DNA from: Chloroflexota bacterium
GTDB taxonomy: Bacteria; Chloroflexota; Anaerolineae; JACRMK01
DNA length: 64,000 bases
Direction of reading: 5' to 3'
Assembly: GCA_016235055.1 (NCBI GenBank)
Contig: JACRMK010000046.1
Span: 34,958 to 98,957, forward strand
Under the pieces are notes generated by a model. The model had not been told where the DNA came from. It was given only the letters and a program-made list of their open reading frames with translations, and did no database searches. A program made the translations under genes and the position numbers. This document shows, piece by piece, positions 2,689 to 62,459 of this stretch (position 1 is its first letter; each line of letters starts with the position of its first letter).

Positions 2689-2776
2689 GTGTTATGTCCT
2701 CGATCGCGTCGTGATGAATTGCCGATCCGCGAATAACGCGAATCGACGATACTTCTTCAAGTAGAGCGCGGTCTCA

Positions 2777-2920
2777 TGGTTGTCATGCTGAGCGCGAAGG
2801 TCGAACTATTGGCCTATCGTGCGCTTCGCGCGCGAAGCGCCTGAAATGCAGCACTTCAGATGTCTCGCGCGAGCGACGAGCCAAAGGAAAGAAGTCTTGC
2901 CTTCGCGCTCAACATGACAA
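2777..2920. repeat. MITE-like element, family 1 (terminal inverted repeats GTTGTCATGYTGAGCGCGAAGG)
   Basis: 22-bp terminal inverted repeats with one mismatch flank about 100 bp containing internal hairpins; related copies at about 17279-17415 and 28809-28950. Confidence 0.6.
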
Positions 2921-2950
2921 CATGACAAATTGGGGCACGGCCAAGTCGAA

Positions 2951-3337
2951 TCAGTATGACCACCACGTTTCCGCCGCGCGAGGGCGCCGCGCATACCATT
3001 CGACGAAGCGCAGTTCGCGGCGGCCTTGCGCCGGGGTGATCAGAATGGCGGTCTTCCCGTAGCGCACGCGGATGCGCTTGCGCAGGGATTCCTCGTCCCG
3101 GTCATGATCGACGACCGCGCGCTGGTGAACTGCCACGAACTCGTCGGCATAGCGCAGCCGCTCGTCCGGTGGCAGCGAAGCCCACCACGCCGACTCCGCA
3201 TTCACCTTATGTCGCTGGGCCTCGAATCGATAGTGCCGAATCGCCGTTTCCACAAGACTCTCCGCGTCGACCCCTTCGGCCTGCGCGGCCGCGCGGATCT
3301 GCGACGCCAGCGGCTCGTGAACCACCAATTCACTCAT
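2951..3337 (-). CDS. Hypothetical protein, possible ribbon-helix-helix N-terminus, last gene of metallophosphoesterase-amidohydrolase operon
   Basis: 128-aa reading frame inside track ORF 2951..3781 beginning MSELVVHEPL...; AGGAGG Shine-Dalgarno 5-10 nt upstream of its ATG, start lies 12 nt after the amidohydrolase stop. Confidence 0.6.
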   Translation of the reverse strand: MSELVVHEPLASQIRAAAQAEGVDAESLVETAIRHYRFEAQRHKVNAESAWWASLPPDERLRYADEFVAVHQRAVVDHDRDEESLRKRIRVRYGKTAILITPAQGRRELRFVEWYARRPRAAETWWSY

Positions 3338-3348
3338 CCGACCTCCTG

Positions 3349-10900: not shown

Positions 10901-11889
10901 GTGTCGAAGCCGTTGTCGGTGCCCCATGAGTTCGAGACGATATCCGGCGCCAGCGCCGGGTCGCCTCCGGGCGCAATGACCCACTGGAAGCCGGCGTGAA
11001 TCCACGAGTCGAGCCCGCGCCCGCTGTTGTCGAAGATCTTCGCGGCGATCCACTTCGCGCCGGGCGCCACGCCGATTGTGTCGCCGGGCGCGCCGCCGAC
11101 GAGCGTGCCCATCGTGTGTGTGCCGTGGCCGTAACCGTCGCCGGGGTAAAGGTAGCCGCTGCCGGTGGCGTCGAACCAGTTGCCGGTGTGCACCGCCGGG
11201 CCGCTGCCGCGATAACCGCGGTAGCGCGTCTGCAGCGCCGGGTGTTGCCAGTCCACGCCGGTGTCGAGATTGGCGATGACGACGCCGGAACCGTCGATGC
11301 CGAACGCGCTCCAGACGCGGTCGGCGCCGATCAACTGGAGGTTCCACTCGGCGGCAGAGGCGGCAGCCGGGGCGGCGGGCGGCGCATCGTCCGCTGCCGT
11401 GAGCACGCCGTCGACCAGTTGCCGCACGTGATCGGCGCGCACAACCGACACCTCCGACAGGGCAGCCAGCGCGAGAATCGTATCGCGGTCGGCTTCGCCG
11501 GCCAGCGCGTTCGCAATCCAGAGCACGCGCGGCGGCCCGGCCTGCCCGGATGTCTGTCGCGCCGCGAGCAGCGCGCGCGCGTTGACCTGCGCCCGGTCGG
11601 CGGCAATTTGCAGCGCCGACACGACCGACGCCGCGCGCGGGGCGCGCCCGCCCGTCGTCGCCGGCACCAGGCTGGCGCGCGCCGAGAAATGCGCCACAAA
11701 TGGCACGCGACCGCCTTTGGTTTGCAGCAGTTGTTTGCGAAGCGCCGGCTCGAGCTTGCGCGCGCTGTCGGGGAACGGCGCGCCGGCGGGCGCGGCGCTG
11801 GTGGCCGGCCCACGCGGGTCGAGCAGGGCCGCGCAGAGCAGCAACAGGGGCAGCAGCGCGACCAGCACGCGCGATAGTCGGCGGTTCAC
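7969..11889 (-). CDS. Secreted subtilisin-like serine protease (peptidase S8) with long C-terminal beta-rich extension
   Basis: 1306 aa; signal-peptide-like N-terminus; catalytic triad motifs DTGVD, HGTHTMG, GTSMAAPHVAG; GTG start. Confidence 0.9.
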   Translation of the reverse strand: MNRRLSRVLVALLPLLLLCAALLDPRGPATSAAPAGAPFPDSARKLEPALRKQLLQTKGGRVPFVAHFSARASLVPATTGGRAPRAASVVSALQIAADRAQVNARALLAARQTSGQAGPPRVLWIANALAGEADRDTILALAALSEVSVVRADHVRQLVDGVLTAADDAPPAAPAAASAAEWNLQLIGADRVWSAFGIDGSGVVIANLDTGVDWQHPALQTRYRGYRGSGPAVHTGNWFDATGSGYLYPGDGYGHGTHTMGTLVGGAPGDTIGVAPGAKWIAAKIFDNSGRGLDSWIHAGFQWVIAPGGDPALAPDIVSNSWGTDNGFDTVFQDDVRAVRAAGIVQVFSNGNNGVMGLGTVGAPASYPESFGVGATDSADQVAYFSSRGPSPIDGHIKPDVSAPGVGVRSSVPGGGYQLMSGTSMAAPHVAGLAALLRQAQPSLTVDGTYYLITSTALPLTTSVPNNNTGWGRVDAFQAVLQATAYGTLSGTITAEGAPLAGAQIVATDRLSRTATASSGPDGVYRLPLAPGDYWVSVFAYGFAPALNNALAITTAQATTLDATLLRLPSGVVRGRLTDVASSQPISASVQASGTPATTTAGADGFYTLTLPVGDYTLRTSAWAHRALTATVSLTANALLTVDFALASAPTILLVDSGAWYMGSQIQYYRDALDALGYPYAVHAIGDPLHGAPATTTLQAYDIVVWSAPFDSPDYIGAGQTLIEYFNYGGRMLLSGQDIAFWDAGPGFAGYDYFPYRLHGQFAADAVATTHVAGISGEALQGITFTLNTTDSAHNQGSTDAVQPLDATARPLARYATGDIAGLVVDTCVPYRAAYLSFGFEGAGPAATRQAALQQLINWLTAAPAVHGLSVTDDASIAVGVPGATVTHAVSVRNTGIVSDAFDLALSGQAWPTALWSGGAPLGSPLTLGACEIRALELRTTIPTDAARNTSDQAQLAVQAQGDPSVAQTRTVTSKTPAPLLLVDDDRWYEQEQKYTATLAAAGIAYDVFDTRGGPGPSTATMQMYPLVVWFTGYDWFDPLSANDEAVLAAYLNAGGRLFFTSQDYLDVRYGQSSFAPSYLGVLSYTNDVTVTSVGGARYSPIADGLGPYTLTFPFNNFSDYVLPTVTATAAYLGNGAQPSAVTVRQPNGVWKTAYFAFPFETLPVAARPVVLGRVAGWLGPLGDSAVIAPSSVLTGAAFTYQLSLTTSNAAFGAGARVTVTLPASVTLLSLGDPSLAYDAPSRSIRWSGMVTAAPPLTWTVQLDPAAADPFYAQYEVADVDEGFVLVRRAWTFVERAKLYLPLIRQ

Positions 11890-11941
11890 AGACAGATGTT
11901 ACCGATAAAGCGGCGCAGGCGCAAGCGAGTTGTGCGGTAGG

Positions 11942-12192
11942 AGGTATATTCAGTTCTGGGGCGCAACCAATACGGAGCAAGAACATAGTAGCTCGTTATG
12001 TCCGCGTAGGGGCGCATGGCCATGCGCCCGCATCCAGAGGTGCTGCCCCCTGGATTCCCGCGGTGCTCTGCGGCCTTCATCCTGTGCCCGCGCCTGCGGC
12101 GCGGAGCGGGGCGAAGCCCCGCTGCACAGGACATCGCGCAGAGCGTTAACCGCCCGCTGGCCCGAAGCCAGCGGGAAACGCGCGGGAGTGAC
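11942..12192. repeat. Composite intergenic repeat, family 4 (GGTATATTCAGTTCTGGGGCGCAACC module plus GTAGGGGCGC hairpins)
   Basis: Modules recur at about 31255-31370 (inverted) and 55057-55220; several perfect short palindromes. Confidence 0.55.
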
Positions 12193-16957: not shown

Positions 16958-17278
16958 GAACTACCGCCTTTCTGGAATCTCAGAACTGCGGCCAGTATAG
17001 CGAGTACCGATGCGTCGTTCTATCCGATTCTTGCGGTTCAAACTGCCGCACAAGCAGGGGACGGCAAAAAGGAATCGTCCGCGCTAGAGCATCTTGCAGA
17101 AACATCGGGCACGCCATGCGGTTCGCCGGGTAGGGGCAGGTCTTTGACCTGCCCAGCGGACAGGCCAAAGGCCTGTCCCTACAGGCGGCGTGCAGCACCG
17201 TATCGGATCATGTCGCAAACCGCTATAAACGCTGGCGACGCTTATGCTTATCCGGGCAGAGCGTGTCCGCAGGAACAT

Positions 17279-21739: not shown

Positions 21740-21955
21740 CAGAGCACGCAAAGAGCGCAAAGAAAAGCTTTGTTGACCGTGAATAACGCGAATTGGCGCT
21801 AGTCGAACGCTAACCGCAGAGAACGCAGAGGAAAACAAGACCAACCGCAAAGCACGCAAAGAGCGCAAAGGAGAACCCTGCTTTCGATTGGCGTCGATTC
21901 GCGTTATTCGCGGATAGAGAGCTTTTCTTTGCGGTCTTTGCGCCCTTTGCGGTTC
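21740..21955. repeat. MITE-like element, family 2 (nested inverted repeats; inner GAATAACGCGAAT / ATTCGCGTTATTC)
   Basis: Outer inverted repeat CGCAAAGAGCGCAAAG / CTTTGCGCCCTTTGCG and inner CCGCGAATAACGCGAAT-type termini; related copy at 56831-56974 and solo ends near 2712, 6465, 24808. Confidence 0.6.
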
Positions 21956-24765: not shown

Positions 24766-24839
24766 AACTTTTCACCGCAGAGAGCGCAGCGAGAACCTTT
24801 GTATCCGCGAATAACGCGAATCGGCGCGAATAGAACAAC

Positions 24840-24995
24840 TGCGTCCCCCAATGAACGCAAAGAGCGCAGAGGTTACTCCCTGCGCTCTCGTCATCTCTTC
24901 ATCCAGTTATCTTGTCATCTCTTCATCCAGTCATCTTGTCATCTCTTCACCTTGTCACCTTGTCACCTTGTCATCTTGTCATCCCGTCATCTTTC
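24840..24995. repeat. Short tandem repeats (CTTGTCAYC units) next to solo family-2 repeat end
   Basis: TCATCTCTTCATCCAG... then CACCTTGTCACCTTGTCACCTTGTCATCTTGTCATCC; similar GTGACAGGATGACAGG tract in inverted orientation near 6380-6450. Confidence 0.55.
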
Positions 24996-25479
24996 AGATG
25001 ACCGGCTTCTCCTTGTCGGTCAGGTTGACGACGACGGCGCGGCTCGCCTTGACCAGGTCGGCCGGCGCAATCAGGATCTCCTCGCCCCACTGGCCGGTGC
25101 CGACGCCGAGCACGCTCTCAATCAGCAGTGACGCTTCGAGGAACGAGCGGAAGCCCGGCCTCTGCCAGTGAAACGGCGGGATCGAGCCGATCTCGTAGCC
25201 GGTCGTCGTTTTGACCGCTTCCGGGCTGGCGAGCTTGATGTTGCGCGAGTTGAGCACCTTCTTCAGGTGCCCGGAGATCGCGCTCTGGTCGCCGCCGAGC
25301 ATGATCAGTGCCCGCTCGCCGCGGTCGTTCTCGAAGATCAGCGTCTTGACCATCTGCCGCTCGTTGAAGCCGAGCGCGCGCGCCACCGAGGCCGCGCCTT
25401 TCTCGATGTCGGTCGGGAATGAGCGCCGCTCGTATGGAATATTCTGCTGGTCGAGGTAGTCGTGGGATGGCAGGTTCAT
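24994..25479 (-). CDS. ybaK: YbaK/ProX-type aminoacyl-tRNA deacylase (Cys-tRNA(Pro) editing domain)
   Basis: 161 aa from internal ATG with AGGAGA upstream; central G-rich loop and K...GG editing-domain pattern (MVKTLIFENDRGERALIMLGGD). Confidence 0.75.
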   Translation of the reverse strand: MNLPSHDYLDQQNIPYERRSFPTDIEKGAASVARALGFNERQMVKTLIFENDRGERALIMLGGDQSAISGHLKKVLNSRNIKLASPEAVKTTTGYEIGSIPPFHWQRPGFRSFLEASLLIESVLGVGTGQWGEEILIAPADLVKASRAVVVNLTDKEKPVI

Positions 25480-38202: not shown

Positions 38203-41200
38203 TCAGATCAGGCGGCGATCCAAAGCGGCGCGCATGGCAGCCGAACGAGAGGGCACGTCCAGCTTGGCGTAGACCGACCGCAGATGACCGCGCACGGTAT
38301 GCACGCTGATAACCAGCCGGTCCGCGATTTCCTTGTCGCTTAGGCCCTGAGCGAGCCAGCGCAGCACCTCCATCTCGCGCGCGGTCAGGGGTTCGCCGGG
38401 CGTTGGCGGTGCACCTTCGTCAACGGGCCCGCCATGCGACTCGGGAGAGGGGTGTTGCCGCTTGGGACCCAGTGCCTCCAGCGCGGCGCGCGCGCGCGCC
38501 GCGTCGGGCAGCGCCTGCACTTCCTCAAAACCGGCCAACGCGCGGGAAAGATAGTCGTGCGCGCGGACAGCGTCGCCGCGCGCGCGTTCGAGGTCGCCGA
38601 GGTCGGCCAACGTGCGACCCGTTTGCCAGGGGGTGCCTAATTGCTGGAACAGCGCCAGTGCCTGCTGGAAGCGTGTTTCCGCTGAGGGGTATTCGCCGGC
38701 CAGCCGGTGAGCCACGCCCCAGGCGCGATGGGCGACGGCCTGATAGAGCACATGGCCGTAGCGCATGGCCAGCGCTTCGGCGAGCGGCGCGTACCTGCGC
38801 AGCATCGGCTCGTCGGCCCGCTGCGCCGCCGTGTCGGCCATTGTGGCGAACAGATCATGGTCGCCGGGCCAGCTTCCGTTATTAAACACCTGTGGGTTGT
38901 TCGCAAATCGCTTCTGCAATGCCCCTTCCAGGTGCTGCTCCACGAGGGCGAACTCGCCCTCCGCCATTAACGGCAGCGCATGTCAGTAGTGCTGGGTGCG
39001 TCCCCACCCATCGGGCCCGACGACCGCGCCCATGATCTGGGCCGACTCGAGTCGCAGCCGGCGCGCGCGTTCGGAATCCCCGCGCATCGCATAGGCGCAC
39101 GAGAAAATGGCGGTGTGCCAGCAAGGATATTGGAACAGGTCCTGCGTGGAGCGCCGCTGCAGCGCAACCATGATTTGCTCGCTGCGGAGGACCTCGTTCC
39201 AGCGGTCGAGGCGCAGCCAAGACAGTGCCTGGCTCGCAAGTGTATGGAGGCAAAGGTCCAATGCGCGAATCTGCCCGGCCTGCGTCTGTGCTTCATCCAG
39301 ATACCGCAGCGCGTCTGTGTATTCGCCCACCGACGCCAACGCCGCGCCCAATTGCATCAAAATCCGCACACGCTCGCGCTGATCGCGGAAACGGGCATCG
39401 CGGCTCAGCGCCAACCGGCGCTGCACCAACTCTATTTGCTCGCGCAGCATGCCCTGCGCGCCATAGACCAGGGCCAGCGCGTCGAGCGCAACCGACGTGA
39501 CGACAGGGTCGTCCAGTTTTTCGGCCATATCCACGCCGGCGCGGGCGTACCGCTCGGCAGCCTCCCAGTCTGCGCTCGCTTGCCGGATCCACATGGCCGA
39601 GGAAAGGGTGGCCAGCAAGTAAACCGTTTCCACATGCGGCGGTTCCACGCTCGCTATTTCCCATGCAACGGCCAGCTGGGCCCGCGCATCGACCCGGAAG
39701 CGCTGGAAGTCGGCGCCCGCGCGCAGATTGAGCACGGCGTTCCCAAACTTGCGGCGCAAGCGAACGGCAAGCATCTTGTCACCGCTGGCCAGCGCGTCCC
39801 ACAGCGCGATCGCCTGCGCGAAGAGCGGAACCGCCAGCAAGGTGTCTCCCTGTTGGTCGTATATGTCGGCCAATTGCTCGACCACGGCGGCTTGCGTGTC
39901 CGGTTTGCGGCTGCCCTGCAGCCAGTCCAGCGCGCGGTGCAAATGCTGCGCCGCCGCGTCATACGCATGGACGGACTGAGCACGCCGCGCCGCCTTGCAG
40001 GCGTAATCGATCGCTTTGTCGCGCTCTCCGGCCGCGCTGAAGTGATAAGCCAGCGCTTCGTCGTCATCCGGATGCCGGCCCTCGATCGCCATCGCAACCT
40101 GGCGGTGAAGATGCTGGCGGCGCGGGGCCACAATATCTTCCTGCAGCGCCGACGGGATGAGCGCATGGGCAAAGACGGACAGGCTGTGCCCGCCTCGCCG
40201 CGTCTCCCGGATCAGCCCCGCGCGCCCGGCGGTCTCCAGGGCATCGATCAGCCGATCGGCCTCCAGGTCGCCCGCAATACGCAGCAGGTCAACGTCAAAT
40301 TCCCTGCCGATGATCGCCGCCAGGCGCAAGACATCCTGCACAGCAGCCGGCAGTTTCTCCACGCGCGCCCGGACCACGGCGCGCACGTTCTGCGGGATGT
40401 GGGACTGTTCCGGCGAGGGCCAGTGCCAGCGTTCTCCTGTGCGATACAGCGTGCCGTCTTCGAGCAGTCCTTTGACAACCTCCTCAATAAAGAAGGGGTT
40501 GCCTTCGGTCTGGCGATACAGGTATTCCAGAAATGCGGGCTCGACCTCGCCGCCAAAAGGCGCGGCCAGCAGCTCGCGAGCCTGCTCGAGGGTGAAGCGC
40601 GACACGCCGAGGTGCGTGCTCAGCCGCTCGCGATTGAGGTCCAGCAGCAGGTGGCCGAGGGCCGCGTTGTCGTGCAGCTCCTCCTCTCGGTAGGTCAGGA
40701 CCACCATGAGACGCATCTGGAATGCGCGGCGAGCCACGTGGCGCAGCAGGTCGAGGGTGCCTCGATCAGCCCAGTGCACGTCCTCAATAGCGAGCACGAC
40801 GGGCGTGCGCGCGGCCGGCGCAGCGCACAACTCCGCGACGCTTTCAAAGATGCGCTCTCGCTCCGAGAGCGGATCGAGCGTGGGATTTGGAGCTATGGCC
40901 GGATAGCGTGCACGCAGCGCCGGCGCGAGTGTAACGAGGTCAGCCAGGGCGAATGCGGGGAGACGCAATTCCTCGCTGGACTGCTCTAAGGCTTGCCGGA
41001 TGAACTGGGCAATGGGAGCATACGGCGTGCCGCCTTCGGCATGGCAGTCGCAGATGAACGCGCGTGCGCCGGCGCGGGACGCCCGGGAGGTGAATTCGCG
41101 CACCAGGCGCGTCTTGCCGACACCCGGCTCGCCGCTCACGAGCAGCGTATGACCTTCGCCGTCCAGCACTCGCCCGAACACGGCGTCGGCCTCGGCCAAC

Positions 41201-41253
41201 TCCCGCGCACGTCCAACAAATGGGCTGCGTAGCAGGCGTTCCAGCATTGGCAT
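38203..41253 (-). pseudogene. Large LuxR-family regulator (N-terminal AAA/NTPase, helical repeats, C-terminal LuxR HTH) interrupted by one in-frame TGA
   Basis: Walker A GEPGVGKT near N-terminus; LuxR HTH (EIADRLVISVHTVRGHLRSVYAKL) at C-terminus; ORFs 38983..41253 and 38203..38967 are in the same frame, separated by TGA at 38983-38985 plus 5 sense codons. Confidence 0.7.
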
Positions 41254-41469
41254 TAGAATCTCGGACCGACTAGCTAATGGAGTGCTACGGGGGTGTATTT
41301 ACCCGTGATCGTCGCGATCTGGGACACGGGCGTGCTCCCTTCCATAGCACGCTGCGCCGATGGTGCTGCCTCATTCGGGTAGACCGATAATAGGCTCGCG
41401 GGAAGCTAATGTCAAGCGAGTAAAAGGTAGGAGCGCACCTCAGTTTCGGGGTAGAGTTGTTGGCAACCC

Positions 41470-41568
41470 GTCATGCCGGCATGTAGTTAGCCGGCATCCA
41501 CGCCAGCATCTGGCGCGCATGCTGGCCCGTGTTACGCCGGCGTGGATTCCGGCCTTCGCCGGAATGAC
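41470..41568. repeat. MITE-like element, family 3 copy
   Basis: GTCATGCCGGCATGTAGTTAGCCGGCAT ... GCCGGAATGAC; close match to 25588-25687. Confidence 0.6.
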
Positions 41569-41792
41569 GGCTTGGATATGCGGTGCATCAGTTTCTGCAC
41601 TCACGCATCCGACGCTGCGGGATGTAATTCTTGCAACGACAGTCTCGCTGAGTGGTGGTTATGCGTATCGGACATCTCTGTTACTGAGTTGTCGAAATCT
41701 AGCATTCATCCGATATTCGCAATATACACTGTATTTCCGGGCGCTTCGTACTCATCGCATGCGCGCTATTTGCTGAAAAGTCAGTAAGCGTT

Positions 41793-42485
41793 CTAGCCGC
41801 CGCTGCGGCGGCCGGGCAGTCCCGCAGAGTCTTTCGGTGCCGTGCGCATCTTTTCCATCATCCGCATGCGCACCTGCGCCAGCGCGTGCTTGAGCGGCGT
41901 CACGCGCAACAGCAGCAGTAACGCGAGCACCGTGCCGTACACCAGCGGCAGGCCGACGTTGCCTTGCAAACGCAGGAAGTCGCCTTTGACCGATAGAACG
42001 AAGTGCACGACCACCAGCGGCGCAATCAGATAGACCAGCTTGTGCAGGCGCGTCCAGCCTTTGCCAAGCCGTTTCATCCAGTAGCGGAACGACGTGACCG
42101 CCAGCGGCACCAGCAGCAGGAACGCCGTCGTGCCGATGATGATGTACCACTTGCTGCCGACGTCGGCCCAAATCAACCCGAAATCGAACGTGTAGTCCAC
42201 CCCGACGAACGCCAGCAGGTGCAGGCTGGCGTACATGAAGCCATAGAGCCCCAGCGCCTTGCGGCGCCGCAGCACCGCCTTCCAGCCGCCGATCGAGGCC
42301 AGCGGCGTGCAGGCCAGCGACAGCAGCAGGAAGGTCAGCGCGACCAGCCCCGTGCGCTGCTCGATCGCCTGGATCGGGTTGGATGTCAGGTTGCGCGCCA
42401 GCGCATCGGCAGCCAGCCACGCCAGCGGCAGCCAGCCGCCGATGTGGACGAGCGCCTGCAGCGGGTCAGGCAAGTGATGTTTCAT
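41793..42485 (-). CDS. msrQ: Protein-methionine-sulfoxide reductase heme-binding subunit MsrQ (YedZ-like)
   Basis: 230 aa from internal ATG, 6 TM helices, conserved His residues for heme b; immediately downstream of msrP. Confidence 0.85.
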   Translation of the reverse strand: MKHHLPDPLQALVHIGGWLPLAWLAADALARNLTSNPIQAIEQRTGLVALTFLLLSLACTPLASIGGWKAVLRRRKALGLYGFMYASLHLLAFVGVDYTFDFGLIWADVGSKWYIIIGTTAFLLLVPLAVTSFRYWMKRLGKGWTRLHKLVYLIAPLVVVHFVLSVKGDFLRLQGNVGLPLVYGTVLALLLLLRVTPLKHALAQVRMRMMEKMRTAPKDSAGLPGRRSGG

Positions 42486-42535
42486 GACCGGACGTAGACC
42501 TGGCGGGTTTGCAAAACCCGCGAGGTCTTTCTCGC

Positions 42536-43507
42536 TCAATAGTTCTTCCGCAAGTCCAGCCCCGCGTAGAGGCCGGCGACCTGCTCGGCATAGCCGTTGA
42601 ACGGCTGCGTCGTCCGCCGGCGCAATTCGCCGATGCGCCGCTCGCTGCCCTGCGACCAGCGCGGGTGATTGACCTCCGGATTCACATTAGCGTAGAAGCC
42701 ATATTCATTCGAGGCAATCGTGCTCCACATCGTCTTCGGCTGCGTGTCGGTTAACTCGATCTTGACGACCGCCTTGATCGACTTGAACCCGTACTTCCAC
42801 GGCACGACCAGCCGGATGCCGCCGCCGTTCGCGGCCGGTAGTTCGCCGCCGTACAGGCCGGTCGCCAGCAGCGTCAGGTCGTTCATCGCCTCGTCGATAC
42901 GCAGCCCTTCCTGGTACGGCCAGGGGTAGAACGGCGAGCGCTGGCCGGGGAAGTCGTCCGGCTTGAAGAGCGTCTCGAAGCGCACATATTTCGCGGCTGC
43001 CGTCGGTTCGACCGCCTTCAGCAGCTTCGCGAGCGGGAAGCCGACCCACGGGATGACCATGCTCCACGCTTCGACGCAGCGCAGGCGGTAGATGCGCTCC
43101 TCGGGCTGGAAGCGCTTGATCATCTCCTCGACGGCGTACTTGCCCGGCTTGCCTACCAGGCCCGACACCTGCACGTCCCACGGCGACGTCTTGAAGTTGG
43201 CGGCGCGCGGCGCAACGCCCTCTTTCTCTTCCGTGAACTCGTAGTAGTTGTTGTAGTGCGTGATGTCCTGGTACGACGTCGCCGGATCGCCCAGTTCGTC
43301 CTTGCGCGCGGACGCGCCCGGCTGGGCCGCAGGCGGCGCCGTGGCCGAAGGCGCCGGCTGCGCGTCGTTGCCTGCCAGCGGACCGCACGCCGCAAGTGCC
43401 ATGCTGCCCGCCACCACGCCGGTGGCCTTGATAAACTCGCGCCGCGAGAGGTACACCGCCTTCGGCGTGACCTCGGATTCCGCGATGCGCGGATAACGGC
43501 TCTTCAT
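42536..43507 (-). CDS. msrP: Protein-methionine-sulfoxide reductase catalytic subunit MsrP (YedY-like molybdopterin oxidoreductase)
   Basis: Twin-arginine signal (SRREFIK), sulfite-oxidase-fold motifs (ITHYNNYYEF, RLRCVEAW, GGGIRLVVPWKYGFKSIKAV). Confidence 0.9.
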   Translation of the reverse strand: MKSRYPRIAESEVTPKAVYLSRREFIKATGVVAGSMALAACGPLAGNDAQPAPSATAPPAAQPGASARKDELGDPATSYQDITHYNNYYEFTEEKEGVAPRAANFKTSPWDVQVSGLVGKPGKYAVEEMIKRFQPEERIYRLRCVEAWSMVIPWVGFPLAKLLKAVEPTAAAKYVRFETLFKPDDFPGQRSPFYPWPYQEGLRIDEAMNDLTLLATGLYGGELPAANGGGIRLVVPWKYGFKSIKAVVKIELTDTQPKTMWSTIASNEYGFYANVNPEVNHPRWSQGSERRIGELRRRTTQPFNGYAEQVAGLYAGLDLRKNY

Positions 43508-43531
43508 ACAGCTCTCCCTCCCTGGGTGTGT

Positions 43532-44083
43532 CTAAGCCGGCTCATTCAGCAATGTCACGATGGCGGCTTCCAGTTCATCATACCGCCCCTCGCCGATATG
43601 CGTGAATCGAATGCGGCCGTGCTTGTCGATCAGGTACAACGTCGGCCAGAACTGATTGCGATACGCGCGCCACGTCGCACCGTCATTGTCCTGCGCCACC
43701 GCATATGGCACGCCCAACCGGGCCACGGCATCCTTCAGATTGCCAAGGTCGGCCTCGTAGCCGAACTCCGGGAAATGGTTGCCGATGATCGTCAGCCCTT
43801 GCGGGCCGTACTGCGCATGCCAGCCCCTCAACGAGGGGATCACATTACGGCAGTTGATTCAGCCAAACGTCCACATATCGAGCAGCACGACGCGCCCGCG
43901 CAGATCGGCCAGCCGCAGCGGGCGGTCGGTGTTGAGCCAGACCGTGTTGGTCAGCTCCGGCGCCGGGCCGAGATCAACCAGTTGCGCCTTTGGCGCGCCG
44001 GCGGCTTGCGGCAACTGCGCAGCCGCCTGCGGAGCGCACGCCGCCAAACATACGAGGGCCAACAGCCAGATAGCATGTCTCAT
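43532..44083 (-). CDS. TlpA/DipZ-type thiol:disulfide oxidoreductase lipoprotein with in-frame TGA at first active-site position (candidate selenoprotein, U-x-x-C)
   Basis: ORFs 43859..44083 and 43532..43843 are in the same frame; TGA at 43859-43861 gives ...[19 protein letters not shown]..., matching the WTYTCINC redox motif of this family with Sec in place of Cys; AGGAGG 6 nt upstream of ATG; lipobox LAAC. Confidence 0.7.
43803..43850 (-). promoter_or_regulatory. Candidate SECIS-like hairpin downstream of the in-frame UGA
   Basis: mRNA CCCCUC-guu-GAGGGG hairpin about 20 nt 3' of UGA, nested in a longer GCCGUA...UACGGC pairing; not verified against a SECIS model. Confidence 0.3.
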
Positions 44084-44150
44084 GGTCGCCTCCTGAAAAC
44101 ATACTAACCGGTTGACATTACGAAAGTATTACCCGGCGCTGAATGGCCGC

Positions 44151-45383
44151 TTACGGCAGCGTAAAGCGGAACGTCGTCCCGGCACCCGGTTCGCTCGCGA
44201 CGCTGATGTCGCCGCCGTGCGCCTGCACCAGCCCGCGCGCGATCGCCAGCCCCAGCCCGGAACCGCCGGTCGCGCGACTGCGCGACTTCTCGCCGCGGTA
44301 GAACTGCTCGAACACGCGCGCCAGATCCTCGGTGCGAATCCCCTCCCCGCTGTCGCTGATGCTCACGCCAACCTGGCCGCCCTCGCGTGCCGCCTGCACG
44401 ACCACGCGCCCGCCGGCCGGCGTGTGCCGCAGGCCATTGCCGACCAGGTTGCTCAGCACGCGACCAATGCGTGCCGCGTCCATCGTGACCGGATCCACAC
44501 CGGGCGCGACAGCCCCTTCCAGCACGACGCCCTGGCGAGCCGCCATGGCGGAAAAGCTTTCCAGCGTGTCGGACACCAGGTCGGCGAGCGAATTCGGCGC
44601 GCGGTCCAGCCGCAGGCCGCCCGCGTCGATCTGGGCCATCTGGAACAGGTCGTCAATCAGCGCCGACAGCGCGCGCACGTCGCGCTGCGCGCCTGCCAGG
44701 TACCGGCGCGCCGTCTGCGGATCGTCCACCACGTCGTCGGCCAGCGCCTCGACAACCGCACGGATCGACGCGAGCGGGGTCTGCAGATCATGGCCCACCC
44801 AGGCGATCAGGTCAGCGCGGAGCCGCGCGACCTCCTGCTGGCGCTCGGCCGCTTCCTGCAACTGCGCCGCCATGCGGTTGAAGGCGCGTGCCAGCGATGC
44901 CACCTCGTCGGTGCCGTGCGCCTCGACGCGCACGCCGAGCTCGCCCCCGGCCACCGCCTGCGCCGCGGACTCGACCTGCCGGATGCGGTCGGTCACAGCG
45001 CTGGATAGAAAATATCCGAGCGCCATCGCCATACCACCGGCAAAGACCAGCAGGATCGTCGCCAGCGCCAGATCATGCGCGCTGGCGAACATCAGGCGCG
45101 CAGTCAGCCATACATTGACGAACGTCAGCACGCTGGACAGGGCATGCCCGGCCAGCAGCGCCCATCGCAGCGTCGGCGCGTACGACAGCCAACCCAGCCG
45201 GTAGGCCGCAAAAGCCGCCGCGCCGGAAATGATCGCCGTCACGCCCAGGAACGCCGTCATCAGCCCGAGCTCGGCCGGCGGCGGCTGCATGACGAGCGTA
45301 AACAGCGCCAGCGCCGCCAGGGTGGCGATCAGGACGCCGGCGGCATAGCGCGCGGCCAGTGGTATGCGAGTGATAGCGCTCAT
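44151..45383 (-). CDS. Sensor histidine kinase (HAMP-HisKA-HATPase)
   Basis: Two N-terminal TM helices; H-box EVARLRADLIAWVGHDLQTPL; N, G1, G2 boxes (GLGLAIAR, GAGTTF); ATGA overlap with response-regulator gene. Confidence 0.85.
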   Translation of the reverse strand: MSAITRIPLAARYAAGVLIATLAALALFTLVMQPPPAELGLMTAFLGVTAIISGAAAFAAYRLGWLSYAPTLRWALLAGHALSSVLTFVNVWLTARLMFASAHDLALATILLVFAGGMAMALGYFLSSAVTDRIRQVESAAQAVAGGELGVRVEAHGTDEVASLARAFNRMAAQLQEAAERQQEVARLRADLIAWVGHDLQTPLASIRAVVEALADDVVDDPQTARRYLAGAQRDVRALSALIDDLFQMAQIDAGGLRLDRAPNSLADLVSDTLESFSAMAARQGVVLEGAVAPGVDPVTMDAARIGRVLSNLVGNGLRHTPAGGRVVVQAAREGGQVGVSISDSGEGIRTEDLARVFEQFYRGEKSRSRATGGSGLGLAIARGLVQAHGGDISVASEPGAGTTFRFTLP

Positions 45384-46069
45384 GGTTCGAACTTGTACCC
45401 CACGCCCCACACGGTCAGCAGGCGGCGCGGATTGGAGGCGTCGGCCTCGATCTTTTCGCGCAGACGCCGCACGTGCACCGTCACCGTGCCTGGGTCGATG
45501 TATTCCGCGCCACCCCACACGCGCTCCAGCAGTTGATCGCGCGTGAACACCTGGCGCGGGTGTCGTGCGAACAGGTAGAGCATGTCAAACTCCCTGGCCG
45601 TGAGTATGGCCGGCGCGCCGGCAACCGTGACGCTGCGCGCACGTGGGTCCACGCACAGGTCGCCATGCTGGATGGCGCGCTCGCCGTCGGCGCCCTTGTC
45701 TCCGCCGGCGCGGCGCAGCACAGCGCGCACGCGACTGACCAGCTCTTGCGGGCTGAACGGCTTAACCATGTAGTCGTCGGCGCCCATCTCCAGTCCGGCA
45801 ATGCGGTCAATCTCCTCGCGTCGCGCGGTGAGCATGATGATCGGCACGTCGCTCTGCTCGCGCAGCCAGCGGGTGAGCGTGTAGCCGTCCAGACCCGGCA
45901 GCATCAGATCGAGCACGAGCAGAGCGGGCAGGCGCTGCGACAGCCACGTACGCGCCGACAGACCGTCCGCCGCGATGTGAACGGTGTAGCCCGAGCGCCG
46001 GAGGTATAAGCCGATCACTTCAGCGATGCTCGGTTCATCTTCAACGACAAGGATTGTTTTCTCGGACAT
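45380..46069 (-). CDS. OmpR-family response regulator (REC plus winged helix)
   Basis: ILVVEDEP, phospho-acceptor region LLVLDLMLPGLDG, C-terminal ...LTVWGVGYKF winged-helix signature. Confidence 0.9.
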   Translation of the reverse strand: MSEKTILVVEDEPSIAEVIGLYLRRSGYTVHIAADGLSARTWLSQRLPALLVLDLMLPGLDGYTLTRWLREQSDVPIIMLTARREEIDRIAGLEMGADDYMVKPFSPQELVSRVRAVLRRAGGDKGADGERAIQHGDLCVDPRARSVTVAGAPAILTAREFDMLYLFARHPRQVFTRDQLLERVWGGAEYIDPGTVTVHVRRLREKIEADASNPRRLLTVWGVGYKFEP

Positions 46070-46259
46070 CGTTCGTGCCCCGCCTCACTGAATAATACAC
46101 CGATTCCGGTCAAACTCATCACTTTGTTAAGAATCTTGTAATACTCCGGCAGGCTGCGCGTAATGAGGATGCGGTAGGATACGCACAGTTATCAATCCAC
46201 CGTGCCGACGGCTTCCGCAAGTCAGGAACCCGTACCGGCCGCTTTTCAAGGAGCAAACC

Positions 46260-47024
46260 ATGCGCAAAGAGATAGCAACCGTCGTGTTGGGATTAACAAT
46301 GATACTCGCGGCTTGCGGGCCGACCCCCACACCCGCCGCCATGATGCAAGCCGCGATGCCAACGCCTGACGCAATGATGGCCAAGCCGACGCCCGATGCG
46401 ATGATGGCCAAGCCGACGCCCGATGCCATGATGGCCAAGCCGACGCCCGACGCCATGATGGCGCGCCCAACACCCGACGCGATGATGGCGCACCCAACAC
46501 CCGACGCCATGATGGCGCACCCAACACCCGACGCGATGATGGCGCATTCGACCCCGGATGCCATGATGCAAGCCCCGGCCTGGTTTGGCGCATCGCTGAC
46601 CGATGTGCGCACCGGTCAGACGTTCTCGCTCAACGGCTTCAAAGGCAAGGTGGTGCTGGTCGAAACGATGGCGCAATGGTGTCCGAGTTGCCGCACGCAG
46701 CAGACGCAGGTGAAAGACCTGCGCGCGATGTTTGCCGGGCGCGATGATCTGGTGACGATCGCGCTCGACGTGGATCCGAATGAGCAGGCCGCCGACCTGA
46801 AGAAATACGTGCAGGCCAACGGCTTCGAAGGGTTCTACGGCATCGCGCCCGCCGCCGTGGCGCGCGAGATCGGCAATCTTTATGGCGCGCAATTCCTGAA
46901 TCCGCCGTCCACGCCGATCCTGATTGTGGACCGCCACGGCCTGGCGCATCCCCTGCCGTTCGGCATCAAGAGCGCACGCGATCTGGCGAGCGCCATCGAG
47001 CCGTACCTCAAGGACGCCATGTAA
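46260..47024 (+). CDS. TlpA/ResA-like thioredoxin-fold lipoprotein with tandem nonapeptide linker
   Basis: Lipobox ILAAC; seven to eight repeats of A[KRH]PTPDAMM; redox motif WCPSC; AAGGAG upstream. Confidence 0.85.
   Translation: MRKEIATVVLGLTMILAACGPTPTPAAMMQAAMPTPDAMMAKPTPDAMMAKPTPDAMMAKPTPDAMMARPTPDAMMAHPTPDAMMAHPTPDAMMAHSTPDAMMQAPAWFGASLTDVRTGQTFSLNGFKGKVVLVETMAQWCPSCRTQQTQVKDLRAMFAGRDDLVTIALDVDPNEQAADLKKYVQANGFEGFYGIAPAAVAREIGNLYGAQFLNPPSTPILIVDRHGLAHPLPFGIKSARDLASAIEPYLKDAM
46341..46560 (+). repeat. 27-bp tandem repeat array inside the tlpA-like gene (coding, in frame)
   Basis: GCCAAGCCGACGCCCGATGCGATGATG-type unit repeated about 8 times with third-position and K/R/H variation. Confidence 0.8.
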
Positions 47025-47088
47025 GGCTGCACGGTTGCGGGCGGACGGCGCTCCAGGGAGCGCCGTCCGCCCCGGGAGGGACAGTTCT

Positions 47089-47757
47089 ATGGAAACGATT
47101 CTGACCGCGATCGGCATTGGCCTGTTGGCGACGACCAGCCCGTGCGTGTTCCCGCTCTATCCCGGGTTTCTCGCCTATATCGGTGGGGGGCCAGTGGCGC
47201 CGAGCCGCGCCGGGCGCTACACGCTGGGCGTGTTCGTGTTGGCGGGCGTGCTGACCATGATGCTCGCACTGGGTGCGCTAATCGCGGCGCTATCCGTCTC
47301 GGTCGGCCGCGCGCTCTCCCTGCTCGTGCCGCTGGCCGACGGCCTGATCGTATTGCTGGGCGTGCTGTTGTTGCTGGGCGCCAACCCGTTCAAGGCGCTG
47401 CCGCAGGTACGTGTGCCGGCGCTGTCGCACCCCTTCGCCAACGCATTCGTCTATGGCTTGTTGTATGGACCGATCGCCCTGCCGTGCGCGGGTCCATTGC
47501 TGGTCGGCCTCTTCGCGTTTTCGCTGACCGCGACGGAGTTCGTCTCGAAACTGGGAGTCTTTCTGGGCTTCGGGTTCGGCTTCGGCTTGCCGTTGCTGGC
47601 GCTTTCGTTTCTGTCCGGCGCCGCCCAGCGCGTCATCACGCGCGCCTTCGCGCGTCATAGCCGGGCGATCAACCGCGCGAGCGGCAGCCTGTTGGTCGGC
47701 GTGGGAGCGTACGATCTCTGGTCGAACTGGACGCTGATCAGCGCGTACCTCGCCTGA
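47089..47757 (+). CDS. ccdA: Cytochrome c-type biogenesis protein CcdA (DsbD-like transmembrane electron transporter)
   Basis: 222 aa, 6 TM helices, two conserved Cys in TM1 and TM4 (TSPCVFPLYP, LPCAGP); GGGAGGG upstream; perfect 30-bp palindrome between tlpA and ccdA. Confidence 0.85.
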   Translation: METILTAIGIGLLATTSPCVFPLYPGFLAYIGGGPVAPSRAGRYTLGVFVLAGVLTMMLALGALIAALSVSVGRALSLLVPLADGLIVLLGVLLLLGANPFKALPQVRVPALSHPFANAFVYGLLYGPIALPCAGPLLVGLFAFSLTATEFVSKLGVFLGFGFGFGLPLLALSFLSGAAQRVITRAFARHSRAINRASGSLLVGVGAYDLWSNWTLISAYLA

Positions 47758-48006
47758 CTTGTGCGCACCGGTTCTTGAAGCGCAATACCGTTTCCCGGAG
47801 TAGACCAGGAGCTAGCGCAGCGTGCAGAACCATCGAGCAGGCAGAATGGAAATCGCCACCCGCGCTGTGCCATGCCTGGCGTCCGGCTTTTGCGGGAATG
47901 ACGTACCGAGACCGTGCCGGTTCATTCTACAAGCCGCGCCAGGGGATGAAGTGGCTCAGCATCGCGCCAGTATGCGCCGTGATGATGGAGACGGATGGCG
48001 ACTGCG

Positions 48007-48174
48007 TCAAAGCAAAACCGTATGCACGCGCCCGGGCGCGCCCGGCGGCCCGCAGGCCGCGATGGCCATACTGCCCGCCACGACGCCGGCGGCCATGATG
48101 AATGCGCGCCGCGAGAGGTACGCCGCCTTCGGCGTGACCTCGGATTCCGCGATGCGCGGATAGCGATTGTTCAT
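48007..48174 (-). pseudogene. Truncated duplicate of the msrP 5' end (RBS plus twin-arginine signal peptide only)
   Basis: About 110 bp near 48060-48175 is roughly 90% identical to msrP 43395-43505 including the GGGAGG ribosome-binding region; reads MNNRYPRIAESEVTPKAAYLSRRAFIMAAGVVAGSMAIAACGP then terminates; end coordinate approximate. Confidence 0.5.
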
Positions 48175-48338
48175 ATTTTTCCCTCCCCTGGATATACGCG
48201 CAGGCCGCCCTGGTCCATTGCCTCCGGCTGTGGCAGCGTGCTGTTCATCTTACCGCCCTTGCCCGAATTGCGTGAACGGCCGCCGGCAACAAAAAGCCCC
48301 GCGTAAGCGCGGGGCGTGTCTGGCTGACCCGCTGCGGG

Positions 48339-49283
48339 CTACCCGCCCGCGCAGATGCTCATGTTCGGATAGAACTGCTTGCAGATGCGCGGCACCGACG
48401 GGCCGAGGATCACCAGGCCCAGCGCCGGCAGCAGCATCAGCACCAGCACCACGCTCATCTTGACCGGCGCGCGCTGCGCCTCTTCCTCGGCGCGCTGGCG
48501 CCGCTGAATGCGCATCATGTCGGACTGCACGCGCAGCACCTTGGCGATATTCACACCCAATTGCTCGGCCTGCAGGATGGCCGCCACAAAGCTGGACAAC
48601 TCCGGCAGGCCGGCGCGCGCCGCCATATCGCGCATCGCTTCGGAGCGCGTCTTGCCGATCTGCACCTCCACCAGCATCTGCGCCAGCCCGCGCGCCATCT
48701 CGTCGTCCCGCTCGCGCGCGACGCGCGCCATGGCCGCCTCCAGGCCAAGTCCGGCTTCCACGCTGACCGTGATCAGGTCAATCGCATCCGGCAGCGCGCG
48801 GCGAATCAAATGCTGGCGGGCGCGAATGCGGCTGTTCAGCCAGAGCACCGGCGCATAGAATCCCAGGCCAACCACCGCCAGGAAAACCAGGATCTGGTTG
48901 GCCAGCGGCAAATTGAGCACCCCGAAAAGCAGTAAGCCGAAGCCGCCGAATAGCGCCGCCAACACGACCCGCATCCCCAGGAAATCGGCCGGCGCCCAGC
49001 GAAACGGGTTGCCCGCCATATCGAGCTTGAGCCGGATCGCATCCAGGTTGACCTGCGGCATCAGGCGCAGCAGCAGTCGCGCCAGGTTGCGCAGTCCGGG
49101 CCGGATCACACGCTCATACAGCGGCTGGTCCAGATCCACCTCGTCCAGCGAGCGGACGCGGCGCCCGTAGTTTTCGAGGCGCGCCTGCACGCGATCGCGG
49201 CGCGTAGTTACCGCCAGGCCCGCGAAGACCAGAAAGATGCCGTAGGCCAGCGACAGCGCGATAATGACAATCTCGGTGGGCAT
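48339..49283 (-). CDS. tadC: Tad pilus inner-membrane platform protein TadC (T2SS F-family)
   Basis: 314 aa, N-terminal TM, cytoplasmic GspF-like domain, two C-terminal TM helices. Confidence 0.85.
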   Translation of the reverse strand: MPTEIVIIALSLAYGIFLVFAGLAVTTRRDRVQARLENYGRRVRSLDEVDLDQPLYERVIRPGLRNLARLLLRLMPQVNLDAIRLKLDMAGNPFRWAPADFLGMRVVLAALFGGFGLLLFGVLNLPLANQILVFLAVVGLGFYAPVLWLNSRIRARQHLIRRALPDAIDLITVSVEAGLGLEAAMARVARERDDEMARGLAQMLVEVQIGKTRSEAMRDMAARAGLPELSSFVAAILQAEQLGVNIAKVLRVQSDMMRIQRRQRAEEEAQRAPVKMSVVLVLMLLPALGLVILGPSVPRICKQFYPNMSICAGG

Positions 49284-55056: not shown

Positions 55057-55220
55057 GGTGCATTTCACTTCTGGGGCGGCTAATGGGCCAACAAGCCGTC
55101 ATGCCGTTGCCCGCTGGCCCCTTGCCAGCGGGCGCTTGACGGTCAGCGGCGAGAAGCCGCTGACCAGCGCGGGCATCCAGAGGTGTTGCCCCTGGACTCC
55201 CGCTTTCGCGGGAGTGACGA
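55057..55220. repeat. Composite intergenic repeat, family 4 copy
   Basis: GGTGCATTTCACTTCTGGGGCGGC module; GCCCGCTGGCCCCTTGCCAGCGGGC and TCCCGCTTTCGCGGGA hairpins matching modules at 12030-12192. Confidence 0.55.
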
Positions 55221-56830: not shown

Positions 56831-56974
56831 CCACGAAGGGACACGAAGGAACACCAAGAACACCTTTATCCGCGAATAACGCGAATGAACGCGAATAGAG
56901 CCCACAAACTCCAGAACTGATTGGCCTCGATTCGCGTTATTCGCGGATCGCTTTTTATTTGTGTTCCTTCGTGG
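56831..56974. repeat. MITE-like element, family 2 copy (nested inverted repeats)
   Basis: Outer CCACGAAGGGACACGAAGGAACAC / GTGTTCCTTCGTGG; inner CCGCGAATAACGCGAAT / ATTCGCGTTATTCGCGG. Confidence 0.6.
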
Positions 56975-59186: not shown

Positions 59187-60785
59187 ATGACCACGTTGTA
59201 TGCCGAGAAGCAGGCTGCGTTCGATTGGATCGAAGCCAACCGAGCGCGCCTTTCCGGCTTCTGCGAGCAGATCTGGAACTATGCGGAGACGGCGTTCCGC
59301 GAGTACAAGTCCGCGCGCGCGTATTGCGATCTGCTGCGCGCCGAAGGGTTCACCGTCGAGGAAGGCTCCGCCGAGATGCCGACGGCGTTCGTCGCGACGT
59401 ACGGCAACGGCGGGCCGGTGCTGGCGACGTTCTCCGAATACGACGCCGTGCCGGAGAACTCGCAGGAGCGCGTGCCGTACCCGTCGCCGCGCGCCGGCCT
59501 GAACCGCTGGGCGGCCGGGCACACCGACCCGCACTCGTCGCTCGGCACGAGCGCGCTGATCGGTGCGCTGGCCGCCAAGGCGATGATGGTCAAATACGGG
59601 CTGCACGGCACGCTCAAGCTGTTCGGCGAGCCGGCGGAGAAGGTCTGCGGTTCCAAGCCGGTACACGCCGCCAAGGGGTATTACGACGGGCTCGACGCGG
59701 CGGTCGTCTATCACCCCAATGCCAGCAACTCCGTAGTGTGGGAAACACACAGCGGCTCGTACTGGAGCGCGGCGTTCGTCTTTGAGTGCATCGATCCGGA
59801 GGAGTGGATCGACCAGCGCCTGCTGCCGAACACGAGCACCTCGCACGCGGCGGCGCGCTGTCCGGCGGCGATCGACGCGCTGTGCCTGATGTATACGCTG
59901 ACCAAGTACAGCAAGGAGGCGATGTTCCCGCACACCGGCACCTGGACGCTCAACGAGAACATCATGGTTGGCGGGCAGTGCACCTCGGACAACCTGCCGC
60001 CGCGCCTGGCGGTCATCCAGTACTCGTGGCGCTCGCCGACGCTCGACATCCAGGAGCGCGTATTCCAGGTGCTGGCGCAGAACGCGCGGCAGGTCGCCGG
60101 CGCGACCGGCTGCGTCGCCTCGGTGCGCTGGATCACGAAGACGCGCGTCGGCCTGCCGAACCTGGCGATCTCCGACCTGGCCTACCGCAACCTGGAACTG
60201 GTCGGCGCGCCCCAGTTTGGAGACGAGGCGCGCACCTTCGCCCGCGCGATCCAGAAGAATCTCGGCTTCGAGCCGATGGACGACCCGTTCATTGCCGACA
60301 ACCAGACGCTGACGCCGCCGCCCGAACTGGAAGCGCGCGTGCGCCAGGGCCTGCCGCCGTGGCAGCTCAACTTCACGTCGGATGATTATGTGGAATACAC
60401 CTGGCACGCGCCGACCGTGCGGCTCTACACGGCGCGGCCGCGCCTGAAGGCGCCCAAGCCCGGTTACACGTACCCGGCATGGGTGAACAACGCGATGGGC
60501 GGCGTGCCGGCCTGCATCGATCCCGGCATGTTCGTCGCGGGCAAGACGATCGCCGCGACGATGCTCGATCTGCTCAAGTCCCCGGACGAGCTCGCCAAAG
60601 CGCAAGCCGAGTTCCGCGAGCGGACGGGTGGCGGCGTGGGCGGCAGCCAGTGGGTCGCGCCGCTGTTGGCGCGCGATTTCCCGCCGCCGGTCGAATTACG
60701 CTGGCCGGAGTACGTGCAGACGCCGCGCGGCGAGGAGTGGTGGGTGCCGACGGTGACGCACGAATCGGCCTACGTGAAGCTGTAG
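59187..60785 (+). CDS. M20-family amidohydrolase (aminobenzoyl-glutamate-utilization AbgB-like)
   Basis: 532 aa from internal ATG with AAGGAGG upstream; metal-ligand regions (GHTDPHS, EPAEK) typical of M20 peptidases. Confidence 0.8.
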   Translation: MTTLYAEKQAAFDWIEANRARLSGFCEQIWNYAETAFREYKSARAYCDLLRAEGFTVEEGSAEMPTAFVATYGNGGPVLATFSEYDAVPENSQERVPYPSPRAGLNRWAAGHTDPHSSLGTSALIGALAAKAMMVKYGLHGTLKLFGEPAEKVCGSKPVHAAKGYYDGLDAAVVYHPNASNSVVWETHSGSYWSAAFVFECIDPEEWIDQRLLPNTSTSHAAARCPAAIDALCLMYTLTKYSKEAMFPHTGTWTLNENIMVGGQCTSDNLPPRLAVIQYSWRSPTLDIQERVFQVLAQNARQVAGATGCVASVRWITKTRVGLPNLAISDLAYRNLELVGAPQFGDEARTFARAIQKNLGFEPMDDPFIADNQTLTPPPELEARVRQGLPPWQLNFTSDDYVEYTWHAPTVRLYTARPRLKAPKPGYTYPAWVNNAMGGVPACIDPGMFVAGKTIAATMLDLLKSPDELAKAQAEFRERTGGGVGGSQWVAPLLARDFPPPVELRWPEYVQTPRGEEWWVPTVTHESAYVKL

Positions 60786-60835
60786 CCAAACGCGACGCAC
60801 AAACGGAAGCGGGACAGGCATGATGCCTGTCCCGC
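60705..60835 (+). repeat. Direct repeat, left copy (3' end of M20 gene plus terminator)
   Basis: 131 bp; identical to 62092-62222 except 2 substitutions. Confidence 0.85.
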
Positions 60836-60841
60836 TTTTTT
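60811..60841 (+). terminator. Rho-independent terminator of M20 gene
   Basis: GGGACAGGC-atga-GCCTGTCCC followed by GCTTTTTTG. Confidence 0.7.
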
Positions 60842-62054: not shown

Positions 62055-62091
62055 ACACTTGATTCCATCGATACCGTGCGGTTTGCTCTGG

Positions 62092-62222
62092 CCGGAATAC
62101 GTGCAGACGCCGCGCGGCGAGGAGTGGTGGGTGCCGACGGTGACGCACGAATCGGCCTACGTGAAGCTGTAGCCAAACGCGACGCACAAACGGAAGCGGG
62201 ACAGGCATCATGCCTGTCCCGC
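62092..62222 (+). repeat. Direct repeat, right copy (duplicate of M20 3' end plus terminator hairpin)
   Basis: Same 131 bp as 60705-60835 with G-to-A at position 6 and loop ATGA-to-ATCA; followed by TTCATTTTC. Confidence 0.85.
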
Positions 62223-62459
62223 TTCATTTTCACTCGGGCGCGGTATTCTGTTCGGACCCTATCTGGCTGCGTCGGGATCGCGTAGGGGCGCACCGACGTG
62301 TGCGCCCGCCTGGCACGCTGCGGGCCGACACGCAGGTCGGCCCCTACCACCGGCGCTTTGCGGGTGGCTTTGCCCAATTCGCACGCATGTTCTAAGTTTG
62401 TGCTATAATAGCGACGGGCACAGAACATTAGTTCTCACTACCGCTATAGGAGAATCGCG

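Follow-up and report, generated by a model that had tools for sequence, protein, structure and literature searches.

A truncated msrP paralog close to an intact msrPQ cluster in an uncultured Chloroflexota bacterium

MsrP (YedY) of Escherichia coli is the molybdenum catalytic subunit of the periplasmic MsrPQ system, which reactive chlorine species induce via HprSR/YedVW (PMC9302797; bioRxiv 10.1101/2021.09.09.459708). The stretch of Chloroflexota DNA analysed here (64,000 nt of contig JACRMK010000046.1; hereafter the window) carries an intact msrP (42536-43507, minus strand; NCBIfam NF003767, 445.5 bits against a cutoff of 207) and an intact msrQ (41793-42539, minus strand; NCBIfam NF003831, 162.9 bits against a cutoff of 130). 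As in hprRS-msrPQ of E. coli, this working msrP-msrQ pair adjoins genes for an OmpR-type response regulator and a histidine kinase. Equivalence of that regulator-kinase pair to HprSR is only an analogy, and neither protein reached an NCBIfam equivalog cutoff.

A second, much shorter open reading frame with an msrP-like start lies 4.7 kb upstream of the working msrP (48007-48174, minus strand; 55 codons, product MNNRYPRIAESEVTPKAAYLSRRAFIMAAGVVAGSMAIAACGPPGAPGRVHTVLL). Truncated paralogs such as this one (hereafter the stub) are a known and common class of feature, and its reading frame is already in GenBank as MBI5878164.1. The PGAP name of that entry, 'twin-arginine translocation signal domain-containing protein', is silent on origin, whereas the stub can be traced to the neighbouring msrP. 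It resembles other truncated-paralog and pseudogene remnants in being homologous to a nearby functional paralog and cut after 44 of its 323 codons, in carrying along a decayed piece of a neighbouring gene, in being absent from more distant relatives and in its patchy, conversion-type identity. It differs from them in that its translation start is still complete and its frame of 55 codons open, which is why annotation pipelines call it a protein. Its first 44 residues are homologous to the Tat signal of MsrP, but there is no molybdopterin-binding domain (no Pfam match), and it cannot be a reductase. In our judgement the stub is very probably a non-functional remnant of a duplication; how that duplication arose and decayed can be reconstructed with less confidence.

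The working locus is part of a cluster that spans 41793-47757, with the stub just outside it. In this cluster ccdA and a tlpA-like gene are divergent from the genes for the OmpR-type response regulator, the histidine kinase and a thioredoxin-like protein, followed by msrP and msrQ. The window's neighbouring proteins were used as tblastn queries against 80 MsrP loci from Chloroflexota genomes, and the cluster was found to recur in many Anaerolineales (loci L002-L004, L006, L007, L015-L018, L025, L028, L037, L052 and L079). The cluster has the look of an envelope module for methionine/thiol repair that is equipped with a sensor of its own.

Three features of the cluster and its edge are recorded here in their own right. 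The thioredoxin-fold gene 5′ of msrP (43532-44083, minus strand), whose product Pfam places in AhpC-TSA/Redoxin, was split into 74-residue and 103-residue pieces in the list of open reading frames by an in-frame TGA (43859-43861) at the first cysteine of the redox motif (DMWTFG-U-INC). At this position eight of 17 orthologs from related loci have TGA and nine a Cys codon; such a split is a classic Sec/Cys signature and marks the product as a putative selenoprotein. The tlpA-like gene (46260-47024) contains eight tandem 27-nt repeats (46326-46595, plus strand) that encode (PTPDAMMAx)n, a linker behind the lipoprotein signal of this TlpA/ResA-like protein. Finally, a 540-nt non-coding stretch of lower GC content (41254-41792), possibly a rearrangement scar, separates msrQ from the gene for a 756-residue regulator (38983-41253, minus strand).

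The relation of the stub to the working msrP was established at both the DNA and the protein level. A direct-repeat search of the window paired 43375-43508 with 48042-48175 (minus strand; spacing 4667 nt), the stub copy being 134 nt long and 87% identical to a source that consists of msrP codons 1-44 and one upstream base. A run of 40 nt is identical in the two copies (48123-48162 = 43456-43495). Stub residues 1-44 align without gaps to the MsrP N-terminus, while residues 45-55 are unrelated to it, and a tblastn search of the window with the first 50 residues of MsrP found the stub with 84% identity over 43 residues (E = 4e-21). The ATG of the stub is intact, and a ribosome-binding site, GGGGAGGG (48181-48188, minus strand), can be read from the sequence 6 nt 5′ of it. 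The earlier note on this DNA had described a match of about 110 bp at roughly 90% identity that took in the ribosome-binding region; the homology holds, with figures slightly different from those given (134 nt at 87%, extending approximately 100 nt upstream), and the frame closes at codon 55, much as that note had it.

Short matches between signal peptides can arise by chance or from the generic composition of Tat signals, and the shortness of this match is the single point in favour of such an explanation here. The alignment of the stub region with the msrP start, at 87% over 134 nt, is far from chance, as is the protein match within the window. The homology also runs on into upstream DNA that encodes no signal, and when 120 public MsrP N-termini were compared with the stub, the local MsrP proved nearest, ahead of the 119 others. 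Generic Tat-signal composition fails as an explanation because the match exists at the DNA level, includes the 40-nt exact run and is closest to the local MsrP. We give chance or composition a negligible probability. Significant nucleotide homology together with truncation relative to a functional gene places the stub among gene remnants and partial paralogs.

The duplicated segment is longer than its coding part, totalling approximately 235 nt (48042-48276). Its counterpart at the working locus (43375-43606, minus strand) runs from the 3′ end of the thioredoxin-like gene across the intergenic region to codon 44 of msrP. The leader of the stub is homologous to the sequence 5′ of the working msrP, that is, to the 3′ end of the thioredoxin-fold gene described above, and a decayed version of that gene end remains at 48230-48276 (minus strand; PFTQFGQGR*DEQHAA, with an internal stop). 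The alignment of this remnant scored 42, and the best of 1000 shuffles reached 27; since the leader homology scores above all 1000 shuffles, we extend the duplication to the full length of about 235 nt. The segment starts directly after the intrinsic terminator of tadC (48291-48315, minus strand; eight G-C pairs and a T run), a boundary that we call junction J1. The stub sits between the end of ccdA (47757) and tadC (48339-49283).

A chimeric join across the 40-nt repeat during assembly could also create a feature of this kind. The source of the window is a metagenome-assembled genome, and short-read unitigs do break within the repeat: four Logan unitigs, drawn from three SRA runs, all end precisely 30 nt inside it, as expected if they were built with 31-mers. 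Those from SRR12113407, SRR12113394 and SRR12113397 match the window from 48133 onwards (the tadC side) and a further one from SRR12113394 matches 46880-48152 (the ccdA side), with no mismatches in any. Both junctions are reproduced exactly, the tadC-leader-stub start and the ccdA-spacer-stub tail being found in independent runs, and the stub-specific leader and tail are present in the reads regardless of the join. With two direct copies of the repeat, moreover, the order in the window is the sole linear path that uses every segment once. An assembly artefact is extremely unlikely.

Comparison with relatives rested mainly on a 2.5-kb JGI contig, the sole close relative found (hereafter L081; sample 3300013125, Ga0172369_10068972). 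It encodes the closest public MsrP (P0003, 87% identity to the window MsrP). Nucleotides 178-543 of L081 align to window 48424-48042 at 71% identity and comprise approximately 85 nt of the tadC 3′ end, the terminator, the thioredoxin-remnant leader and the msrP start; the thioredoxin-gene remnant is detectable in the L081 leader too (score 33, against a shuffle maximum of 30). From there the L081 frame runs on into a complete msrP-msrQ, 83% identical over 1648 nt to window 43504-41863. Junction J1, between the tadC terminator and the 3′ remnant of the thioredoxin gene, is common to both organisms and would most simply have formed once, in their common ancestor. The earlier note had suggested a comparison with relatives that may retain a second msrP; the intact msrPQ behind the same junction in L081 lends real support to its reading of the stub as the stump of a second copy, and two more distant relatives carry the tandem msrP genes described next.

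More distant relatives have no such stub. A scan of the genome collection within 10 kb of the 80 MsrP loci (closest, 73% identity) found none, and a second msrP N-terminus was present in just two of them, L008 and L017, both full tandem duplicates (full-length msrP-msrP 5′ of msrQ, at 2060-3996 and 10001-12117, respectively). When metagenomes were scanned for the stub-type leader pattern, L081's own contig was the sole hit; exact-protein look-ups with the stub and with MsrP returned no contig, and the 55-residue peptide, used as query in a homology search, matched nothing but itself. In L087-L089, whose TadC is 79% identical to that of the window, tadC is followed after about 300 nt by a response regulator, with neither tlpA-ccdA nor the stub. 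The tadC/regulator neighbourhood has clearly been rearranged repeatedly. Two further observations concern these contigs: the response-regulator gene that follows tadC in L087-L089 (for example in L089 1174-1646) has a conserved promoter region with it, 82% identical to window 46164-45897, and L081 1-177, the sequence before the last 85 nt or so of tadC, is unrelated to the window tadC. The tad locus appears to be disrupted in the L081 organism.

At the other end of the stub, msrP homology ends at 48042, defining junction J2 (48041/48042). Immediately beyond it lies a 14-nt GC palindrome, CGCGCCCGGGCGCG (48027-48040), which occurs once in the window, and a 284-nt spacer (47758-48041) leads from the breakpoint to the convergent ccdA. 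The spacer held no detectable remnants of msrP or msrQ or of their downstream regions and no similarity to L081; elsewhere in the window, too, searches for remnants of msrP, msrQ and plsY found none. The spacer search gave two dispersed motifs of approximately 30 nt, each with 80-81% identity to its relatives: 47873-47903, similar to 41539-41569 and 55190-55219, and 47811-47842, similar to 17083-17114. The earlier note had reported family-3/4 repeat material after the stub and had ascribed the truncation to a repeat-associated deletion, and here our results depart from it. Those two short motifs were the only dispersed material detected, and the breakpoint lies neither in nor beside a member of a dispersed repeat family, where a deletion mediated by REP or MITE elements would be expected to place it. 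A repeat-mediated deletion is not supported, because the nearer motif (47873-47903) is approximately 140 nt from the breakpoint; the palindrome at the junction, for its part, is unique in the window. The motif at 47873-47903 is one of three intergenic copies (with 41539-41569 and 55190-55219) of a hairpin-like sequence of about 30 nt (GCNTGG..TCCSGCYTTYGCSGGARTGACG) that yields 'AFAGMT' and 'RRNDG' pseudo-peptides in spurious reading frames.

Identity between the stub and its relatives is unevenly distributed. In a three-way comparison of sites in the stub, the working copy and L081 (coordinates relative to the ATG), the stub agrees with L081 alone at 17 sites from -50 to -8 and with the working copy alone at none, while from +12 to +69 the corresponding counts are 0 and 11 (Fisher's exact test on the contrast, p = 5e-8). 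The candidate gene-conversion tract (48105-48162, minus strand) has one mismatch to the working msrP in 58 nt, whereas L081 differs at 11 sites, and the stub is approximately 20% different from L081 within it. Given 18 differences in 132 nt, the probability of a 58-nt window with at most one difference is 0.003. Outside the tract the stub, the working copy and L081 are equidistant at approximately 18%. Constraint fails to explain the identity of the tract, because L081 varies freely there, mostly at synonymous positions. The mosaic, seen against the single relative L081, is best read as the result of a gene-conversion event in this lineage that involved the stub and the working msrP. Such an overwriting of about 58 nt would account for the young appearance of part of the stub beside the roughly 18% divergence of the rest.

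The history that we propose starts in the common ancestor of the window and L081 organisms, where approximately 235 nt would have been copied directly behind the tadC terminator: the last 90 nt or so of the thioredoxin-like gene, msrP codons 1-44 and, between them, the short intergenic stretch that carries the ribosome-binding site. At first this copy would most likely have stood at the front of a full second msrPQ, an arrangement that L081 retains. Everything beyond codon 44 may then have been lost through an illegitimate deletion at 48041/48042, and the gene conversion with the working msrP would have come later. We give about even chances to the central steps of this history, namely that a full-length second msrPQ existed and was later deleted after codon 44. 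The earlier note had called the stub the stump of a second msrP copy: as a description of a partial paralog this stands, and the intact msrPQ behind the same junction in L081 agrees with it, but former full length finds no msrP or msrQ remnant in the spacer to confirm it. The conserved leader block, the pattern of substitutions and the repeated occurrence of full msrP duplicates within the order slightly favour a formerly complete copy over one that was never complete. Against it stand the spacer, without any trace of the msrP body or msrQ, and the gene 3′ of msrQ in L081, a plsY-like fragment and not ccdA, so that the two 'site B' contexts differ downstream. It also relies on just one close relative, on a 2.5-kb contig, and L087-L089 are without the stub.

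The same arrangement could have been reached without a second complete gene. A 4667-nt tandem duplication, running from the spacer start to msrP codon 44, would have created J2. The first of the two copies would then have lost the stretch between the tadC terminator and the thioredoxin gene's 3′ end, which would have produced J1 and left just the 235-nt stub; L081 would be a later recombinational collapse, in which homologous recombination between a stub and a working msrP deleted the intervening module. Several observations suit this course of events. The two direct repeats exactly bracket a module of approximately 4.5 kb (43509-48041: the thioredoxin-like, histidine kinase and response regulator genes on the minus strand, the tlpA-like gene and ccdA on the plus strand, and the spacer), which recombination between them would be expected to delete. 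The layout of L081, with tadC terminator, remnant leader and intact msrPQ, is exactly the product that such an event predicts. The conversion tract, for its part, points to repeats that do recombine, and the want of any msrP-body or msrQ remnant beside the stub is in keeping with a copy that never had them. This course nevertheless demands that the L081 organism lost a module conserved across many Anaerolineales, and the plsY-like sequence 3′ of msrQ in L081 does not match the region 3′ of the window's working msrQ. A ratio of synonymous to non-synonymous changes of 5:4 and the TATAT block shared with L081 also fit a once-functional copy slightly better. We regard a stub that was never a full gene as possible, though probably not what happened.

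The downstream context of L081 is of limited help in choosing between the two histories. A search of the window for plsY found it absent, and neither plsY nor the gene for the 756-residue regulator was matched 3′ of msrQ in the relatives. The plsY-like gene of L081 cannot decide between the histories, because it matches neither window context.

Whichever way the stub arose, its present function, if any, has to be judged from what it encodes and from what surrounds it. The stub product scores 21.2 bits with TIGR01409 (Tat signal; cutoff 16.7) over residues 20-46. Its Tat motif, SRRAFIM, has methionine in place of the consensus lysine (K27M) and is followed by a hydrophobic region, and the lipobox pattern [LVI][ASTVI][GAS]C can be read at residues 38-41 (IAAC, corresponding to LAAC in MsrP). 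No Pfam family matches the stub, and TIGR01409 is the only NCBIfam match; neither NF003767 nor the catalytic domain PF00174 (Oxidored_molyb) is found in it, and plus-strand reading frames that overlap it have no Pfam match. If transcribed, the stub would give rise to a 55-residue predicted signal peptide with an unrelated 11-residue tail and no enzyme domain. Expression of a short Tat peptide, an idea put forward in the earlier note, is plausible on these sequence features.

As for transcription, an 18-mer, GGCGGCCTGCGCGTATAT (48192-48209, minus strand), is identical in the stub and L081 leaders and absent 5′ of the working msrP. It contains a -10-like TATAT and may on that ground be a promoter. 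In neither the window nor L081 did a consensus promoter scan pick out the leader with the TATAT; the scan's sole call in the stub region (48010-47982, minus strand) falls inside the stub tail and the spacer. A molybdenum-cofactor riboswitch precedes some molybdoenzyme genes. An Rfam scan of the window gave nothing at the gathering level except a tRNA, and in 47600-48450 it gave only anti-hemB, at 20.1 bits against a cutoff of 49.5, over the tadC terminator. RNA folding of the stub region is unremarkable (z = -0.73). Neither an Rfam model nor folding beyond that of shuffled sequences marks the region as a cis-regulatory RNA.

The nine stub-specific changes, counted in one stub genome, are five synonymous and four non-synonymous (p = 0.08 against the neutral expectation), a weak and statistically non-significant hint of past constraint. 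They may be set beside other features that would suit a stub under selection, whether as a Tat-exported lipopeptide or decoy or as a promoter-leader for genes on the same strand. The ribosome-binding site and the ATG are intact, the twin-arginine motif is above the TIGR01409 cutoff and is accompanied by the lipobox-like IAAC, the 18-mer with its TATAT box is conserved with L081, and non-synonymous changes are slightly fewer than neutrality predicts. No minus-strand terminator-like site was called between the stub and ccdA, and transcription from a promoter-leader would run antisense to ccdA-tlpA and onward into the regulator, kinase, thioredoxin and msrPQ genes. Other evidence tells against selection. 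The stub is absent from 80 of 80 related loci and from L087-L089; the consensus lysine of the Tat motif is lost and the tail beyond residue 44 is unrelated to MsrP; gene conversion, rather than constraint, accounts for the high identity of the tract, given the variation of L081 within it; and the leader shows no RNA family, no unusual folding and no sigma-70-type promoter call. Selection for a functional element is very unlikely, and we retain the reading of the stub as a non-functional duplication remnant.

A further proposal would be that the two 134-nt repeats are kept as a recombination switch that excises the 4.5-kb redox-sensing module, or that the 55-residue peptide is itself functional; we think this very unlikely. 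If the switch existed, excision would put msrPQ under the stub's leader, as in L081, and populations could alternate between regulated and regulator-free msrPQ expression.

In practical terms, 'msrP 5′ fragment' would be a more fitting label for MBI5878164.1, and the entry should be left out of counts of Tat substrates. Beyond annotation the significance of the locus is small, and nothing in it would surprise a specialist. It illustrates on a small scale how an envelope oxidative-repair cluster in uncultured Chloroflexota may be remodelled through partial duplication, gene conversion and deletion, how a short repeat breaks up short-read assemblies, and how a direct repeat pair could delete a conserved regulatory module.

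Other repeats were noted in the window. They include a 151-nt pair with 95% identity (60687-60837 and 62074-62224), a tandem array of 8-nt period (24862-24997), and a dispersed family centred on ATCCGCGAATAACGCGAATCG that is present in both orientations (2709-2756, 21759-21806, 24787-24834 and 56852-56899).
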